Shown piece after piece: positions 1,086 to 7,702 of a DNA stretch of 64,000 bases. Source of the DNA: Candidatus Pyrohabitans jungbluthii (GTDB lineage Archaea > Hydrothermarchaeota > Hydrothermarchaeia > Hydrothermarchaeales > BMS3B); contig MTMD02000015.1 in NCBI GenBank assembly GCA_002010065.2, positions 64,001-128,000 of the forward strand. Reading direction: 5' to 3'. The notes beneath the pieces are model-generated. The model did no database searches. It was not told the DNA's origin and saw only the letters and a list, made by a program, of their open reading frames with translations. Position 1 is the stretch's first letter, and every line of letters begins with the position of its first letter. The translations under genes and the position numbers were made by a program.

Positions 1086-1136
1086 CTCAATAGCATTATC
1101 ACACTGTTAAAGAAAAATTTAATGCGGGGTGCAAGA

Positions 1137-1241
1137 GTGGACAGGAAGGAGAGAAAGGATTGGAAGCTCACCATTGAAGATTTTGAGAAGGCTGCCTGCT
1201 ACCGTGACCACGGTGACTACCGCCCCATTGCGCCTCAGTAG
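1137..1241 (+). CDS. Putative RiPP precursor peptide, 34 aa (MDRKERKDWKLTIEDFEKAACYRDHGDYRPIAPQ); 39 aa if started at ATG 1122
   Basis: Manual translation: GTG at 1137 preceded by a GGGGTG RBS-like motif, TAG at 1239-1241. Lies 18 nt upstream of an RRE-fused radical SAM/SPASM gene; below the ORF-track length cutoff. Confidence 0.8.
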   Translation: MDRKERKDWKLTIEDFEKAACYRDHGDYRPIAPQ

Positions 1242-1259: not shown

Positions 1260-2570
1260 ATGGCTGCGCATGTGGTGAGAAGGAACCCCAACGTAGTTTA
1301 TCGCAGAGAAACCCGGGGTGGCACGGTAGAGGGTTTACTACTTTTTAACTATTCCACTCGTGGGATACATTTTCTTGAGGGTTTAGCAGCTAAGCTATGG
1401 GAAGTGTGCGAGGGGAAGAGCGCAGAGGAGATTGCGCATTCTCTAAAGCTGAGCAAAGCTGAGGTTGAGCGCTTTCTTGGGGAGCTTGAGGCTCGCAGGC
1501 TGGTGCGCTACAAAGGCGAGGGTAGCGAGGGTGACAACGAGGCTTTGAGCACCTCTGGCAAAGGAATGTGGAGCTCCCGGGTTTACTTCGATTCGCCAAT
1601 CTTTGTGCAATTCGACGTTACCAATGCCTGCAACCTGCGCTGCGCCCACTGCGTTACCTCCTCGGGTGAACCTCTGGAAAATGAGCTTTCAACGCAGGAG
1701 GCGCTCTCGTTGATTGATGAGCTTGCGTCGCTCGGGGTTTTCCAGATAGGCTTCTCCGGCGGAGAAGCGCTGCTACGCAGGGATATCTTCACGCTGATGG
1801 AGCACGCGAAAAAGCGAGGCATAAAGGTGCAGCTCACCACAAACGCAACGCTTATCAGCGAAGCTACAGCGAAGAAGCTGGTGAAGCTCGAGCCTATCAC
1901 CGTTGGGGTTAGCCTTGAAGGAGCAACAAAGCAGAGCTACGGAAGCTTTCGCGGCGAGGAGAACTTTGAGCGTGCCCTCTCCGGGGTACGCGCGCTCTTG
2001 CGCCACTCGCTGCCGGTGAAGCTGAAGGTCGCTGTTTCAAGGCGCAATCTTAGCGAGGTGGACGCAATTCTCAAGCTGGCGGTTGAGCTGGGCGTTGAGG
2101 CTGTGGATATGTTCCTACTCTATCCCGAGGGGAGAGCCAGGGGCATGAAGGACGAAGCCCTGAGCAGCACGGAAATTAAGGAGTTCTTAACCCTGCTTGC
2201 AAGGAGGCGCAGGGAGTACGAGGGAAAGCTTGCGATAGATGTGGACGACAAGCCCAACGCCTTTCTGGTTGACGCTTCTCTGGGTGCGAGCACCTGTGGC
2301 GCAGGCGCGTACTGGGCGGAGGTGCTGCCAAACGGAGATGTGGTGCCCTGCATTTTCCTGCGCAGTATGCGCGCTGGCAATGTGCGCGAGGCGAGCTTCA
2401 AGGAGATATGGCAGGGCAGCGTGTGGGAGCCTCTGCGCTCCCGTAGGCTAAAGGGGAGGTGCGGTGAGTGTGAGCACGCCTCTCGCTGCGGCGGGGGATG
2501 CAGGGCGAATGCGCTTTTACTGCTGGGCGACATAATGCAAGAGGATGCGCTGTGCTGGTACGGTGGTTAG
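1260..2570 (+). CDS. RRE (PqqD-like)-fused radical SAM/SPASM maturase, MftC/PqqE-like
   Basis: N-terminal ~85 aa PqqD-like pattern (RRNPNVVYRRE…LLLFNYSTRGIHFLEGLAAKLWEVCEGKSAEEIA…FLGELEARRLV); CNLRCAHC; GGE; SPASM cysteines CGAG…GDVVPC…CGECEHASRCGGGCRA…C. Confidence 0.9.
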   Translation: MAAHVVRRNPNVVYRRETRGGTVEGLLLFNYSTRGIHFLEGLAAKLWEVCEGKSAEEIAHSLKLSKAEVERFLGELEARRLVRYKGEGSEGDNEALSTSGKGMWSSRVYFDSPIFVQFDVTNACNLRCAHCVTSSGEPLENELSTQEALSLIDELASLGVFQIGFSGGEALLRRDIFTLMEHAKKRGIKVQLTTNATLISEATAKKLVKLEPITVGVSLEGATKQSYGSFRGEENFERALSGVRALLRHSLPVKLKVAVSRRNLSEVDAILKLAVELGVEAVDMFLLYPEGRARGMKDEALSSTEIKEFLTLLARRRREYEGKLAIDVDDKPNAFLVDASLGASTCGAGAYWAEVLPNGDVVPCIFLRSMRAGNVREASFKEIWQGSVWEPLRSRRLKGRCGECEHASRCGGGCRANALLLLGDIMQEDALCWYGG

Positions 2571-3570
2571 GGTGAACGCCTCAGGGTTATACGCGGTGGA
2601 GATCAGGCTAACAAAAGCGTGCAACCTGCGCTGCGCTCATTGCTCCGTCGCCGGAGGGGAGGCGGCGCGGGATGAGCTGGGCACCTCTGAGATAAAGCAC
2701 GTGCTTGACCAGCTTGCAGAGCTTCGCGTTCCCTACGTCACCTTCACAGGGGGCGAGCCTCTGCTGCGCAGGGACGCGATAAAGCTCATCGCATATGCAT
2801 CTTCGCGGGGGCTGCGCCCAAACCTGGACACCAACGGCATGCTCATAAACCCTGCCAAAGCCAAGCGCCTTAAAGAGGTAGGCATTGATCTGGTGCAGGT
2901 GAGTATCGATGGCACAGAGGAGACCCACGAAAAGATACGCGGGCAGGGAAGCTATGCTGCGGCGATTCGTGGTGCCAGGGAGGTGGTCAGGGCAGGGATT
3001 CCACTGCACATCAACTTCACCCTATCCAAGCTCAACCTCTCCGACCTCGAAGCAGTGGTGGAAACCGCCTCTTCCTTGGGGGCGAGAAGCCTCAGCCTGG
3101 AGAGGTTCATCGCCATCGGCAGGGGAGGAGCTATCGCCGAGCAGGCGCTTAGCAGCGAGGAGTTTCGTGAGGCACTGCACAGGTTTTTCTCACTGGCTGA
3201 GCATACACAGGTAAAGCTTCTCACCACCGACCCGCTGCGCGTGCTCATAGATCGCAAGCTTATAGAGCGCTACCGCGAGGAGATGTCGCGAAGAGTTTGC
3301 GGTGGGTGCACCGCTGGCATTGCAGCGCTAACCATATCCTACGACGGTGAGGTGTACCCCTGTCCGAAGCTACCCCTAAGCGTAGGTAATGTTCGTGAGC
3401 AGAGCATCGCAGAGATATGGCAGGGCAATGAGACCCTAGCGGCGCTGCGCGCGCGGGAGTTTAAGGGCAGGTGCGGTGAATGTGAGCTGGTAAATCTGTG
3501 CGGTGGGTGCAGGGGCGAGGCATTCGCGAGGGGAGATTTTCTTGGCGAAGACACCATGTGCTGGAAGTGA
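2545..3570 (+). CDS. Radical SAM/SPASM protein (second maturase, no RRE)
   Basis: CNLRCAHC, FTGGEP, CTAG…DGEVYPC…CGECELVNLCGGCR…C; the true start may be GTG at 2563. Confidence 0.9.
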   Translation: MRCAGTVVRVNASGLYAVEIRLTKACNLRCAHCSVAGGEAARDELGTSEIKHVLDQLAELRVPYVTFTGGEPLLRRDAIKLIAYASSRGLRPNLDTNGMLINPAKAKRLKEVGIDLVQVSIDGTEETHEKIRGQGSYAAAIRGAREVVRAGIPLHINFTLSKLNLSDLEAVVETASSLGARSLSLERFIAIGRGGAIAEQALSSEEFREALHRFFSLAEHTQVKLLTTDPLRVLIDRKLIERYREEMSRRVCGGCTAGIAALTISYDGEVYPCPKLPLSVGNVREQSIAEIWQGNETLAALRAREFKGRCGECELVNLCGGCRGEAFARGDFLGEDTMCWK

Positions 3571-3574
3571 TGGT

Positions 3575-4651
3575 ATGCGTGACGAGGAGCTTAAGGTTGA
3601 ACTTCTGTGCCGGGGAATGAAGGTTCCTGAGCAAGCGTGGAGCTACTACAAGCGGAGCGCGGGCTTTCCGATAAGGTTTGGGGATACGCTGGTAAGCGTG
3701 CCCTCCTTGGGCAAGTACGACCGCTACAGCTTCGTAGAAGCTTCGCCTTACAGCATAACGAGAAGCGACGGGAAGTGGCTGCTTCTTAAGGACGGGGAAG
3801 TGATTCGCGAAGTCGACGTAGCCGAGGTGCCCGGCTTTTACGAGAAGCTGAGCAGCGATGGCGTGGAGATGAAGCGCATATTCCAGGTTTGTGGCTGGGA
3901 CTGCGTGCTCACAGGCGTTGTTCAGAGCTGTGCCTACCAGAGGCGTGGCACCCAATGCAGGTTCTGTGGCACCATCTACAACCCTGCCTACGAGGGCAGG
4001 CTGGACAGGAAAACGCCTCAGCAGCTTGCTGAAGCCGCTGAAGCAGCGGTGGAGCACGGGATAAAGCATGCGGTTATAACCTCCGGCGTAATGCCCACCC
4101 CCGACAGGGGAGCGCGCCTCTTGCTGGAGGCTGCGAAGGCGATTAAGGAACGCGTGGATATCCCGCTTGAGGCTGAGCTCGCTCCGCCACAGGATTTGCG
4201 CTACTTGGAGCTTCTTTTAGAGCACGTGGACAGCGTGAGCATAAACATCGAAACTTTAGACCAGCGAGTGCGAGAGTACGCCTGTCCCGATAAATCCAAT
4301 ATACCCTACGAGGAATACTTCGCGGCGTATGAGCTCGCCCTCGAGGCTCTCGGCGAAAACCAAGTGAACTCCTGGCTCATCGCCGGTCTAGGGGAGAGTG
4401 ATGAGGCGATCATCGAAGGGGTTGAAGAGCTCGCTGAACGAGGCGTCTTCCCCTTCCTTGTGCCCCTCCGTCCCACAAAGGGCACGGGCTATGAGAACAC
4501 GCCGCCACCATCGCCGGAGAGGCTGAGCACGCTTGCCATGCAGGCTGCGGAGGTGGTTAAAGACTTCGGGCTGAAGCCAGAGAAGAACAAAGCCGGATGC
4601 ATGAGGTGCTCCGCGTGCTCACCCGTGAGGGACTTTCTGAAGCTGGTGTAG
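3575..4651 (+). CDS. Radical SAM protein, MSMEG_0568/biotin-synthase-like fold, CX8CX2C motif
   Basis: QSCAYQRRGTQCRFC, ITSG, NIETLD, WLIAGLGE, VPLRP..GT, C-terminal KAGCMRCSACS; start placed at ATG 3575 just after the upstream stop. Confidence 0.8.
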   Translation: MRDEELKVELLCRGMKVPEQAWSYYKRSAGFPIRFGDTLVSVPSLGKYDRYSFVEASPYSITRSDGKWLLLKDGEVIREVDVAEVPGFYEKLSSDGVEMKRIFQVCGWDCVLTGVVQSCAYQRRGTQCRFCGTIYNPAYEGRLDRKTPQQLAEAAEAAVEHGIKHAVITSGVMPTPDRGARLLLEAAKAIKERVDIPLEAELAPPQDLRYLELLLEHVDSVSINIETLDQRVREYACPDKSNIPYEEYFAAYELALEALGENQVNSWLIAGLGESDEAIIEGVEELAERGVFPFLVPLRPTKGTGYENTPPPSPERLSTLAMQAAEVVKDFGLKPEKNKAGCMRCSACSPVRDFLKLV

Positions 4652-5313
4652 GGCTAAAGGAGAAGTGGAGGCGCGGCTACGAAGGGTTGGCTCAGCTTAT
4701 AGCACAGCATATTTACGGGCGCGTGCTTGAGGCGGGCGCTGGCAGAGGACAGCTCACTCAGGCGCTATTGCGCTACCACGAGAACCTCGTAGCCCTGGAT
4801 GCATCGCCGGGAGAGCTTTTTAAGCTTAAACAAAGCTGCCATGTTACGGCGGTGGCAGGAGCTTTTGAGGCGCTGCCCTTCGCGGCGGGGAGCTTCAACT
4901 GCGTGGTGAGCAACTTCACCGCGGGCTGGCTAAACGAGGAGCACTTGCTCAGAGCGCTTAAAGAGTTTAAACGGGTGCTCGCCAAAGGCGGCGTCGCGAT
5001 ACTCAGCGACTTTTACCCGGAGGCAAGGAGCAAGGCGGAAGAGGTGGCGCTGCTTCAGGGCTTGCCCGAGAACAACCTCTTGCCTTCGGAGAAGTGGTGG
5101 CATCCCGAGGAGATTGCAGCGCTTGCAGCGAAGGCTGGCTTTGAGGAGGAGAAGCTAGCCTTCTACGACTGGGGCATACGCTTCACCAGAGAGGAGGCGA
5201 TACTCCAGCTCACGCGGTGGCATGCTAAGCAGGAGTTCATAGGCCGCATAGACGCTCTGCTTTCAAGGCATGGCATGGCTCTTCCCCAAAGCTATGTGCT
5301 CATGCTGAGGTAG
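4597..5313 (+). CDS. Class I SAM-dependent methyltransferase
   Basis: VLEAGAGRG motif I, LPFAAGSFNCVV, RVLAKGG; exact start uncertain. Confidence 0.85.
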   Translation: MHEVLRVLTREGLSEAGVGLKEKWRRGYEGLAQLIAQHIYGRVLEAGAGRGQLTQALLRYHENLVALDASPGELFKLKQSCHVTAVAGAFEALPFAAGSFNCVVSNFTAGWLNEEHLLRALKEFKRVLAKGGVAILSDFYPEARSKAEEVALLQGLPENNLLPSEKWWHPEEIAALAAKAGFEEEKLAFYDWGIRFTREEAILQLTRWHAKQEFIGRIDALLSRHGMALPQSYVLMLR

Positions 5314-5317
5314 GGAT

Positions 5318-6106
5318 ATGAAGCTTCTCATCCTGGCTGGAGTGCATGGAGATGAGCCTGCTGCAGTGGAGGCAGCGAAGAGACTGGCGAGGCTTTTCCG
5401 GGACAGTGAAGAGGTTGAGGTGGTGCCGGAGGCTAACCCGGAGGCATGCTTTGCCGGCACCAGGCTGAGCCCCAGCGATGGCAGGGATTTAAACCGCTGC
5501 TTTCCAGGAAATGAAGAAGGGACGAGCACAGAGAGGCTTGCATTTAGGCTTTTTCAGAAGGTGCTTGAGGCTGAGGTTGTGGTGGACCTGCACACGCCCA
5601 GCATGGGCAGAGCGTACCTGCCCCACGCCAGGCTGCGCGTGGCCATGCCAAAGCTGAGAGAGCTGTGCTCCTATGCGGGCATGGACTATGCCACCCTTGA
5701 TGTACCTGAGCAGGGAATGCTCCAGGTGGAGGCTTCTCAGCGGGGGATACCTGTGCTCACCCTTGAGGCTGGAGAGGGAGGCAAAGCAGGCGAAGAAACG
5801 GTTAACGCTCTTGTGGAAGCGGTGCTGGGAGTGGCGCGAAGTCTGGGCGTAGCAGAAGGCGAGGCTGCTCGCGGAGAGGTGCGCTTTGTGAAGCGGGAGC
5901 GGATTCTGAGCGATGCCTCGGGTAAGCTTAAGATGAAGGTGGCGCTAGGCGATGAGGTGAGGCTGGGCACCATAGTTGCGAAGGTTGGAAAGACAAGAAT
6001 AAAGTCCCACGTGAATGGCATTGTTCTGGGTGTGAGTTCTCAGGAGTACGTGGAGGAGAATGAGTTTGTCGCCAGCATAGGCGTGGAGGTTCAGCATGAA
6101 TTATGA
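5318..6106 (+). CDS. Succinylglutamate desuccinylase/aspartoacylase-family (M14-like) Zn amidohydrolase/peptidase
   Basis: AGVHGDE (HxxE), DLNRCFPG, VDLHT, TLEAG; C-terminal biotinyl/lipoyl-like domain. Confidence 0.85.
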   Translation: MKLLILAGVHGDEPAAVEAAKRLARLFRDSEEVEVVPEANPEACFAGTRLSPSDGRDLNRCFPGNEEGTSTERLAFRLFQKVLEAEVVVDLHTPSMGRAYLPHARLRVAMPKLRELCSYAGMDYATLDVPEQGMLQVEASQRGIPVLTLEAGEGGKAGEETVNALVEAVLGVARSLGVAEGEAARGEVRFVKRERILSDASGKLKMKVALGDEVRLGTIVAKVGKTRIKSHVNGIVLGVSSQEYVEENEFVASIGVEVQHEL

Positions 6107-6638
6107 GGAATGCTATGAGCTTATAAAGCGCGCTCGCTACCGCGATGCAATCTCTTGCTTAGAACGCCTGCTCAGCGCCAACCCGCGCGACGACCGCGCG
6201 TGGGTTACCAAGGCGGGGGCGCACCGTGCCATAGGCGAATACCACGAGGCTTTGAGCTGCTACGACGAGGCGATTAAGCTCAACCCGAGCAACGACGACG
6301 CGTGGTACTTCCGCGGCAAGCTCTTCGCCAGATGGAGTGAGCACGCTGAGGCTGAGCGCTGCTTTGCCGAGGTGCTGAAGCTCAACCCGCGCGATGAGTA
6401 CGCATGGATAGGCAGAGGAAAGGCGCTTAAAGGTTTAGCCCGCTACGAGGAGGCGCTGCGCTGCCTGGACAAAGCTATTGAGATTAACCAGCGCAACGAG
6501 GACTCGTGGATGCTTAAGGCGGAGGTGCTGCTGAAGCTGGGGAAGCGCGACGCTGCCATCGCCTGCCTCAAGCGCGTGCTGGAAATTAACCCCAGAAACG
6601 AGGACGCGAAGGATAAGCTGGAGAGGATAAGGGAATGA
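6096..6638 (+). CDS. Tetratricopeptide repeat protein
   Basis: About five 34-aa repeats of the form NP..D.AW..KG……Y.EAL.C.D.A. Confidence 0.92.
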   Translation: MNYEECYELIKRARYRDAISCLERLLSANPRDDRAWVTKAGAHRAIGEYHEALSCYDEAIKLNPSNDDAWYFRGKLFARWSEHAEAERCFAEVLKLNPRDEYAWIGRGKALKGLARYEEALRCLDKAIEINQRNEDSWMLKAEVLLKLGKRDAAIACLKRVLEINPRNEDAKDKLERIRE

Positions 6639-7702
6639 CGCTGAGCGTTGCTGACAAGAAGATACTTATCCAGAGCAAGGGGCTGAGAATCCCCTGGGAA
6701 GTGGAAAAAGAGCTAGCACAGCGCTTCGCGGGCGTTGAGAGCGACTATCCCAGCTTCTTCCTCGAGGGCAGCACACCTGTGGGTCTGCTCAACGGCTTCT
6801 ACACTGAAGCCTCGCCCTTTGAGCTTCGCAGGCATTGCAAGGGGTATGCGATTTTTTGCGACGACGAACCCTTCGCAGAGGTGAGCTTTCTACCTCGCAC
6901 CCCCTTCCTCGACAGGCGCACCTCTCGAGGCATAGCAATGAGGCGCATTGTTAAGATGGTTGCCCCCGGGTTTCCGATAATCTACCTTAACACGGGATGC
7001 ATGTACTGGGGGGAGAAGCAGTGCAAGTTCTGCGTGGTGGGGCACATAGACACAGAGAAGTTTAAGAACCCAGAGGATGTGGCTGAAACCGTCGAAGCTG
7101 GAGTCAAAGACGGTGGTATAAAAACCCACGTGGCGCTCACCAGTGGGGCTTTGCCCAAGGATAAGGCGATTGACCTGCTCGCAGCCACTGTAAAGGCGAT
7201 TAAAGAGCGCGTAGATATACCGGTTTCCGTTAATCTTGAGCCTCCAAGGGATTTGGGCAAGCTTGAGATGCTTGCTGATGCTGACTCTATATACCTGAAC
7301 ATGGAAGTCTACGACCCTGCCGCAAGGAAGCGCTTTCTCCCGGGCAAGAGCGAATTCTCGCCTGAGTACTACTTCAGAGCCTTTAAAGCATGCCTCGATA
7401 TATTCGAGGAGAACCAGGTATGCTCTGTGCTGCTCGCTGGCCTAGAGAGCGACGAGAGCTATCTGCGCGGCGTTGAAGCCCTCGCCGAGCGTGGCGTGCT
7501 CCCCGTAACCACGCCCTTCTACCCAGCGCTCCTCTCAAAGCTAGCGGACGAGAAGCCGCCCTCCGCCGAGAGGATGCGCCGCATATACGAGCGCAGCGTG
7601 GAGATAATCCGCGCCTATGGTTTGGACCCCTTCAAGACAAAAGCAGGTTTTATGCGCGGCGGCGCAATCTTCGCCCTCAAGGAGGTTTGGAAGGAGATGT
7701 AA
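6635..7702 (+). CDS. Radical SAM protein, paralog of 3575-4651, CX7CX2C motif
   Basis: GCMYWGEKQCKFC, ALTSG, KAIKERVDIP shared with the paralog, LLAGLE; C-terminus KAGFMRGGAIF lacks cysteines. Confidence 0.8.
   Translation: MTLSVADKKILIQSKGLRIPWEVEKELAQRFAGVESDYPSFFLEGSTPVGLLNGFYTEASPFELRRHCKGYAIFCDDEPFAEVSFLPRTPFLDRRTSRGIAMRRIVKMVAPGFPIIYLNTGCMYWGEKQCKFCVVGHIDTEKFKNPEDVAETVEAGVKDGGIKTHVALTSGALPKDKAIDLLAATVKAIKERVDIPVSVNLEPPRDLGKLEMLADADSIYLNMEVYDPAARKRFLPGKSEFSPEYYFRAFKACLDIFEENQVCSVLLAGLESDESYLRGVEALAERGVLPVTTPFYPALLSKLADEKPPSAERMRRIYERSVEIIRAYGLDPFKTKAGFMRGGAIFALKEVWKEM

Follow-up and report, generated by a model that had tools for sequence, protein, structure and literature searches.

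The window considered here is the whole stretch of DNA that was analysed, 64,000 nucleotides from the genome of Candidatus Pyrohabitans jungbluthii (hereafter G000; 1.99 Mb in 15 contigs). At 1137..1241 on the plus strand lies a reading frame of 34 codons, starting with GTG at 1137 and closing with TAG at 1239-1241, which is presumed to encode a precursor peptide and is found as a single copy in the genome. Its translation, MDRKERKDWKLTIEDFEKAACYRDHGDYRPIAPQ, includes 16 charged residues. Every element named in a sequence-only reading of this DNA that preceded the present analysis (WKLTIEDFEK, AAC, YRD, HGD, YRP, and IAPQ) was recovered in this frame, as was the aromatic residue at every third position, with Tyr22, His25, and Tyr28 spaced by three residues. 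Four parts can be distinguished in the peptide: a variable, charged N-terminus (residues 1-8), the segment WKLx[IV]EDFE (residues 9-17), presumed to be the recognition sequence of an RRE, the segment ACYRDHGDYxP (residues 20-30), presumed to be the core, and a variable tail (residues 31-34). No database family was found for the 34-aa peptide, the ESM Atlas returned no usable match for it, and Rfam gave no match within positions 600-1300 of the window.

A Shine-Dalgarno-like GGGGTG is found at 1125..1130 on the plus strand, 6 nt 5' of the GTG. An alternative in-frame ATG at 1122 would lengthen the product by five residues, to 39 aa. The start at 1137 was favoured because the GTG is aligned with the ATG start of the orthologue in a related genome (G009), because a Shine-Dalgarno-like sequence precedes the start in all lineages (GAGGTG in G009 and GGAGGA in G025 at the equivalent spot of the alignment), and because the N-termini of the other variants are short, with 4-8 residues before the Trp (eight in the database peptide P0001 if its first Met is used).

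The peptide gene is followed, after a gap of 18 nt and on the same strand, by rSAM1 (1260..2570; 436 aa), which combines a PqqD-like RRE (approximately residues 10-80), a radical SAM core with a CX3CX2C motif, and a 7-Cys SPASM region. Next come rSAM2 (2545..3570), a radical SAM/SPASM enzyme 38% identical to rSAM1 and devoid of the RRE or any N-terminal extension, and an MSMEG_0568-like protein, variant rSAM A (3575..4651), with an invariant CX8CX2C and a C-terminal CxRCSAC motif; its start was placed at a Met common to the orthologues, the ORF list having a GTG at 3503. The remaining genes encode a class I SAM-dependent methyltransferase (4597..5313), an AstE/AspA-family (M14-like) zinc hydrolase with invariant HGDE and DLH[TS] motifs (5318..6106), a TPR-repeat protein (6096..6638), and variant rSAM B (6635..7702), a paralogue of variant rSAM A with a CX7CX2C motif and without the C-terminal Cys motif. 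All eight genes are on the plus strand, separated by short gaps or overlapping. Two SPASM enzymes and an M14-like enzyme had already been pointed out in the sequence-only reading, and both observations held, the latter corresponding to the hydrolase at 5318-6106; the two MSMEG_0568-like variant rSAMs, the methyltransferase, and the TPR protein had been left out of it.

Upstream, on the opposite strand, are ORFs that we take, from their translations, to be aIF1A-like and RIO-kinase-like. The intergenic region between the aIF1A-like ORF and the peptide gene contains in G000 a stretch of about 260 nt (716-975) that is absent from the corresponding, otherwise alignable regions of G001 and G004; it harbors several short inverted repeats and is present as a single copy in the genome.

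Conservation of the peptide and of its gene cluster

A search for rSAM1 across 41 related genomes recovered full orthologues in G001, G004, G009, G025, and G019, with 59-94% identity. The sequence-only reading had made its claim depend on conservation of the ORF, and in all six genomes (these five and G000) a small ORF of the peptide family was found directly upstream of the gene for the RRE-rSAM orthologue. When one genome of each prokaryotic species was scanned for the peptide pattern, nine loci emerged, five of them those of the Hydrothermarchaeota. The other four, alphaproteobacterial (L033-L036; hosts in Kiloniellaceae, Denitrobaculum, and Pelagibius), were rejected as a nine-residue chance identity, AACYRDHGD being located inside dehydrogenase-like ORFs of 380-450 aa. 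A scan of metagenomes gave five loci, four of which were true and included two new variants; the fifth (L041) is probably due to chance, AACYRDHGG being located there in a frame of 53 aa that is unrelated and lies at the end of a contig. When 1.84 billion cluster representatives were searched with a profile, three matches were obtained at E<=0.001: P0001, a true peptide of 35 aa (E 2.8e-17), P0002, a protein of 1336 aa aligned at profile positions 20-29 only, and P0003, a repetitive 174-aa protein that is not a family member. Seven distinct peptide variants were thereby available, every one from Hydrothermarchaeota.

The pattern W-K-L-x-[IV]-E-D-F-E-x-x-A-C-Y-R-D-H-G-D-Y-x-P was kept in all seven variants, and 18 columns were invariant (M1, W9, K10, L11, E14, D15, F16, E17, A20, C21, Y22, R23, D24, H25, G26, D27, Y28, and P30). 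An alignment of this kind had been proposed in the sequence-only reading as a way to learn which of the Cys, Tyr, His, Asp, and Arg residues are fixed, and it left C21, Y22, R23, D24, H25, D27, and Y28 invariant and R29 variable, the latter being replaced by Thr in G019. Position 31 is Ile or Val, and from there on the tails vary in both length and sequence (IAPQ, VEPQ, VGDF, IPPE, IGE, VGE, and VGDL). The boundary between leader and core is not readable from conservation, since both parts are invariant.

In the codon block W9-I31, the variable sites at codon positions 1, 2, and 3 numbered 6, 3, and 19, respectively, of 23 each. Pairwise dN was 0-0.13, and dS ranged from 0.9 to saturated, barring the pair G000/G001, which is identical in this block. 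Such a pattern is what would be expected of a gene that is translated in this frame and kept by strong purifying selection, and the overlapping antisense and +1 ORFs were ruled out by it. Part of the invariance of the peptide could nevertheless reflect shared ancestry, the family being a narrow one. In a public gene call of an rSAM1 orthologue (P0020), an N-terminal extension of 40 residues was noticed; it looks like a misframed reading of the peptide gene and would, if so, illustrate how the precursor escapes annotation pipelines.

The gene order peptide, rSAM1, rSAM2, variant rSAM A, methyltransferase, AstE, TPR, and variant rSAM B was traced in the other genomes by tblastn of the window proteins. 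It was fully kept in G001 (L028), G004 (L029), and G009 (L032). In G019 (L030), the order was the same up to the TPR gene, which was followed by a nucleotidyltransferase-like ORF, and the variant rSAM B orthologue was located on another contig, with 49% identity. In G025 (L031), AstE was missing between the methyltransferase and TPR genes, and a weaker AstE-family homologue (34%) was found on another contig. The genes of the cluster are thus not all obligatorily linked, as AstE lies outside it in G025 and variant rSAM B elsewhere in G019. The cluster enzymes were 51-97% identical across L028-L032, with divergence down to 52-63% identity. Homologues of AstE and variant rSAM B were present in all three cluster-bearing genomes tested (G009, G019, and G025) and in neither of two cluster-less congeners (G002 and G003, 93% and 96% complete), and this co-occurrence with the cluster indicates that both genes belong to the system.

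Within the phylum, rSAM1 was detected in 6 of 38 genomes, G000 included (E<=1e-90), and in 4 of the 21 that are at least 90% complete. Its holders belong to three families of one order, and two of the four other genomes of the same genus carry it. Among 5.8 billion clustered proteins, 27 clusters were 55-99% identical to rSAM1, and the next best were 38-39% identical in the rSAM/SPASM part only. A similar step was observed for variant rSAM A, with 22 clusters at >=55% and then <=42%, where the broad MSMEG_0568 family begins. The system is thus a unit that is tight, isolated, and patchy in its distribution.

The flanks of the cluster contain the aIF1A/RIO genes in G000, G001, and G004 and are different elsewhere, and no flanking gene belongs to the conserved set. 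In G009 alone, the stretch directly upstream (L032 5026-8860) encodes two proteins of the NosL family, an ABC ATPase together with a MacB/FtsX permease, and a wHTH protein (DUF7343). The hint of a metal chaperone offered by NosL was dropped, because the NosL homologues of G000 are on another contig (C8) and hence outside the conserved set; the ABC exporter beside the G009 peptide gene may leave room for export. In three metagenomic or MAG loci (L031 384-836, L039 56-2436, and L040 3075-5504), the peptide gene is adjoined by divergent genes for a zinc-ribbon protein with multiple CxxC motifs, a protein of 232 aa, and an rSAM of the B12-binding type. The zinc-ribbon and B12-rSAM genes were set aside as chromosomal synteny and not part of the system, their G000 homologues being about 52 kb downstream (approximately 53.0-56.0 kb of the window). 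After variant rSAM B, G001 and G004 carry an ORF of 380-390 aa with several CxxCH motifs, resembling a multihaem cytochrome (L028 9985-11163 and L029 11019-12155), which is missing at the equivalent place in G000, and two small ORFs of 76 and 81 aa were found between AstE and TPR in G004 only (L029 8865-9310).

Radical SAM enzymes and accessory proteins

Both SPASM enzymes gave Pfam Radical_SAM and SPASM matches above cut-off, and the cysteines of the CX3CX2C and SPASM motifs were invariant. The Pfam PqqD match of rSAM1, at residues 28-82, was sub-threshold (19.1 bits vs a cut-off of 23.4), and PqqD matches were obtained in 11 of 18 rSAM1 orthologues, the best with E 7.1e-8. In the AF2 model of rSAM1, strands at 12-19, 23-30, and 35-40 are followed by helices at 41-49, 55-62, and 66-78, which is the RRE topology; the mean pLDDT was 70.5, with 78-94 in the RRE blocks and low values in the SPASM region, as expected without clusters. 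A Foldseek search with this model placed PqqE first (E 6.4e-16), then SuiB, matched over the full length with a TMq of 0.66, and then SkfB, TigE, and CteB. By sequence, the best match among solved structures was also PqqE (6c8v, E 1.9e-22). The RRE forms a separate ORF of 80-odd residues in the G019 lineage, ending where the rSAM gene starts; since such a short form, with the RRE split off, recurs in 7 of the 27 rSAM1 orthologue clusters, it can be regarded as the natural split of an independent module. The earlier description of a precursor-type peptide adjoining two rSAM/SPASM enzymes, one of them with an RRE, therefore agrees with the Pfam matches, the AF2 model, and the gene order.

The best NCBIfam matches of both SPASM enzymes were NirJ2, AhbD, MftC, NirJ1, and TIGR04053, all below cut-off. 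The MftC model TIGR03962 (cut-off 265 bits), which among the named families came closest to its own cut-off, scored 189.2 bits with rSAM1 and 167.1 with rSAM2, and the PqqE model TIGR02109 (cut-off 381 bits) scored 134.5 and 141.3 bits, respectively. In a quick maximum-likelihood tree, the orthologues of rSAM1 and rSAM2 formed two separate long-stemmed clades, with support of 100 and 99, that were not resolved as sisters.

A second, unrelated RRE-like rSAM/SPASM gene of 409 aa was observed elsewhere in G000 (L005, G000:C5:23131-26808; ORF 1336-2565). It is preceded by a Cys-bearing ORF of 46 aa (MDLTEEIRARVCKRCDFYKEGETLECAAFK...; ORF 1230-1370) and another rSAM-like gene, so that L005 is possibly a second peptide-maturation locus of this genome.

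The two variant rSAMs did not pass the MSMEG_0568 model TIGR04043 (cut-off 303.7 bits; 262.3 for A and 169.8 for B), and both passed the variant_rSAM domain model NF045502 (cut-off 125; 185 and 182 bits). Sequence comparison (E<=0.01) gave no solved relative of variant rSAM A. It was modelled by AF2 with high confidence (pLDDT 94), and its nearest folds were those of lipoyl synthase, HydE, RlmN, biotin synthase, ThiH, and MiaB, with E of about 1e-8 to 1e-6 and TM of about 0.5. The LipA/HydE/BioB/ThiH branch of the rSAM superfamily performs sulfur insertion or complex small-molecule chemistry. The C-terminal C-x-R-C-S-A-C of variant rSAM A could hold an auxiliary cluster. The MSMEG_0568-like family is widespread in bacteria and archaea, with some bacterial relatives fused to GNAT domains, and we know of no function assigned to it. 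For the AstE-like hydrolase, the best solved relatives were 3cdx and the N-acetyl-DABA deacetylase 6twm, accompanied by weak MpaA matches; going by family names, the AstE/AspA family cleaves an N-acyl bond beside a free carboxylate.

Alternative explanations, proposed processing and nature of the product

A frame that is short, begins with GTG, and belongs to no database family could have arisen by chance in the intergenic leader region; this explanation is refuted by the in-frame conservation across saturated synonymous divergence, and its probability is negligible. A small non-substrate protein, such as a regulator or an rSAM assembly factor, is also very improbable as the product of the ORF. 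The invariance of the whole peptide would suit a protein-protein interface as well, but the arrangement with an RRE-fused rSAM/SPASM enzyme directly behind the ORF is how a peptide substrate is usually recognized, and 34 residues with 16 charges are unlikely to fold independently. The reading as a precursor, in turn, is well supported, and the alternatives of more weight concern the chemistry installed on it. In the available part of PMC11499958, triceptides are defined by links from an aromatic residue to a C-beta on omega1-x2-x3 motifs, with HTK, HAA, HNR, and YDR motifs as known substrates. Were the peptide a triceptide, the SPASM enzymes would act as three-residue cyclophane synthases and join Tyr22 to the beta-carbon of Asp24, His25 to that of Asp27, and Tyr28 to that of Pro30, so that three rings would follow in tandem. 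Three such motifs (YRD, HGD, and YRP/YTP) are indeed present in all seven variants, the sole change being at x2 of the third (Arg to Thr). However, it was solely from this spacing that the sequence-only reading had drawn its triceptide assignment, and the enzymes did not bear it out. In the genome-wide search with the XyeB model TIGR04496 (cut-off 450 bits), the one maturase family tested, rSAM1 and rSAM2 were not among the matches at E<=0.001, the two weak ones obtained (38.8 and 18.8 bits) both lying away from these genes. Likewise, WgkB was the sole cyclophane-synthase family among the best 25 NCBIfam matches, with 163 and 157 bits where the cut-off is 650, and NirJ2, AhbD, and MftC were nearer. 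Moreover, no motif with Pro as the x3 acceptor is mentioned in the portion of PMC11499958 available to us, and the invariant Cys, the two variant rSAMs, and the methyltransferase would be left unexplained. A triceptide is therefore rather unlikely.

The invariant Cys21 would be accounted for if a SPASM enzyme linked it to a carbon atom in Asp24, in Asp27, or elsewhere in the peptide, as in sactipeptides, ranthipeptides, or the thioethers that QhpD makes between Cys and Asp or Glu. Such a peptide is about equally doubtful. The StsB, SkfB, AlbA, and PapB models matched significantly (E 2e-47 to 3e-21), and SkfB and CteB were among the structural neighbours of rSAM1. Nevertheless, the scores of rSAM1 with these sacti- and ranthipeptide models were all far below cut-off (162 of 625, 85.7 of 300, 78.2 of 850, and 76.2 of 340 bits for StsB, SkfB, AlbA, and PapB, respectively), and the sactipeptide label is unsupported. 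In the core of the seven variants, Cys21 is the only invariant Cys, and a single Cys explains neither the presence of two SPASM enzymes nor the invariance of the Tyr, His, Asp, and Gly residues.

The ORF thus probably encodes a translated precursor that enters a multi-rSAM maturation pathway, previously undescribed and confined to Hydrothermarchaeota, for which the following steps are proposed. The RRE would bind the conserved WKLx[IV]EDFE as a leader, and the two SPASM enzymes would abstract hydrogen atoms and install at least one intramolecular cross-link within ACYRDHGDYxP, candidate links being carbon-carbon bonds from Tyr or His to a C-beta and a thioether that joins the lone Cys with an Asp. 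Further tailoring might be carried out by the two LipA/BioB/HydE-like variant rSAMs and the methyltransferase, and the AstE/AspA hydrolase could strip the variable tail up to the invariant Pro30, a plausible stop. Trimming of the C-terminal IAPQ by this enzyme had been suggested in the sequence-only reading. Only the 2-4 residues after P-[IV] vary, which fits a trimmed tail; in G025, the hydrolase is not in the cluster.

The pathway most likely ends in a single fixed molecule that serves its producer physiologically, and not in a diversifying antimicrobial. This view derives from the fixed leader and core in the face of diverging enzymes, from the single precursor copy, and from the conserved set of genes, in which no exporter, immunity gene, or leader protease was found across the cluster loci compared. 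The enzymes are also nearest to MftC, PqqE, and NirJ, and this, too, points to a product for own use similar to PQQ or mycofactocin. In turn, the patchy distribution and the ABC system of G009 argue against a fixed product for own use, and an accessory distribution would be equally compatible with a cofactor and with a specialised metabolite. It is a tentative possibility that the peptide is the ribosomal precursor of a Hydrothermarchaeota-specific peptide-derived cofactor or metal-binding prosthetic molecule. In this case, a fragment of the invariant CYRDHGDY segment would be cross-linked by the SPASM enzymes, rebuilt by the LipA/BioB/HydE/ThiH-like variant rSAMs, possibly through sulfur insertion or chemistry on the Tyr side chains, methylated, and cut out by the zinc hydrolase.

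Maturation of peptides by rSAM enzymes is well known in bacteria, and few archaeal examples have been studied; to our knowledge, no peptide-derived redox cofactor has been described from archaea. A search of the literature retrieved no papers on YRDHGDY or on MSMEG_0568, and searches on radical SAM enzymes of Hydrothermarchaeota and on archaeal RiPPs or SPASM precursors listed nothing on this cluster; neither "radical SAM" nor "peptide" is used in PMC6775978, and the matching passages of PMC13635244 were confined to methods and references. We regard the system as a variant of rSAM-dependent peptide maturation that had not been described before and that is confined to Hydrothermarchaeota, where 6 of the 38 genomes of the phylum carry it. 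It joins a conserved 22-residue segment with four rSAM enzymes from two branches of the superfamily. Its 6.6 kb encode the peptide of 34 residues and seven enzymes or accessory proteins, a size that suits heterologous co-expression, so both the product and what each enzyme does chemically are directly testable. The MSMEG_0568 family and the accessory metabolism of uncultured subseafloor carboxydotrophs might in this way become accessible to biochemistry for the first time. If the product did turn out to be a cofactor, it would be the first archaeal counterpart of PQQ and mycofactocin, and a first function would be obtained for the MSMEG_0568-like rSAM superfamily.

Comparison with known systems

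The likeness to known systems is partial in each case. The bacterial MSMEG_0568 family proper (TIGR04043), located in the Nit1C nitrilase cluster, has the invariant CX8CX2C in common with variant rSAM A, whereas both variant rSAMs score below its cut-off and no nitrilase, GNAT, or AIR-synthase-like gene is among the neighbours here; we know of no link between this family and a ribosomal peptide. SuiB, CteB, and SkfB, for which structures are solved, show the same three-part RRE-rSAM-SPASM architecture as rSAM1, with only 16-20% sequence identity and an unrelated precursor. The triceptide systems of XyeB, HtkB, HaaB, and ChlB, as presented in the available part of PMC11499958, are similar in their omega-x-x motifs with Tyr and His and in their rSAM/SPASM chemistry. 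In contrast to these, the core is invariant here and not variable, four rSAM enzymes are present, and neither SPASM enzyme is matched by the XyeB model.

The resemblance to PQQ biosynthesis (PqqA, PqqD, and PqqE) lies in PqqE being the best match by sequence and fold, in the PqqD-type RRE, and in acidic and Tyr residues kept in a fixed register. However, the score with the PqqE model is below cut-off, no PqqB- or PqqC-like genes are in the neighbourhood, and the Glu-x3-Tyr pair carried by PqqA is not present as such in the peptide. Mycofactocin (MftA, the RRE MftB, MftC, and MftE) differs in that rSAM1 and rSAM2 score below the MftC cut-off and in that the present system has a second SPASM enzyme, two variant rSAMs, and an archaeal host. 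No creatininase-type MftE, flavoenzyme MftD, or glycosyltransferase is found among the neighbours, and, whereas MftA ends in Gly-Val-Tyr, none of the seven peptide tails ends in Val-Tyr. In both systems, a short precursor that does not vary is accompanied by an RRE, an rSAM/SPASM enzyme, and a dedicated hydrolase.
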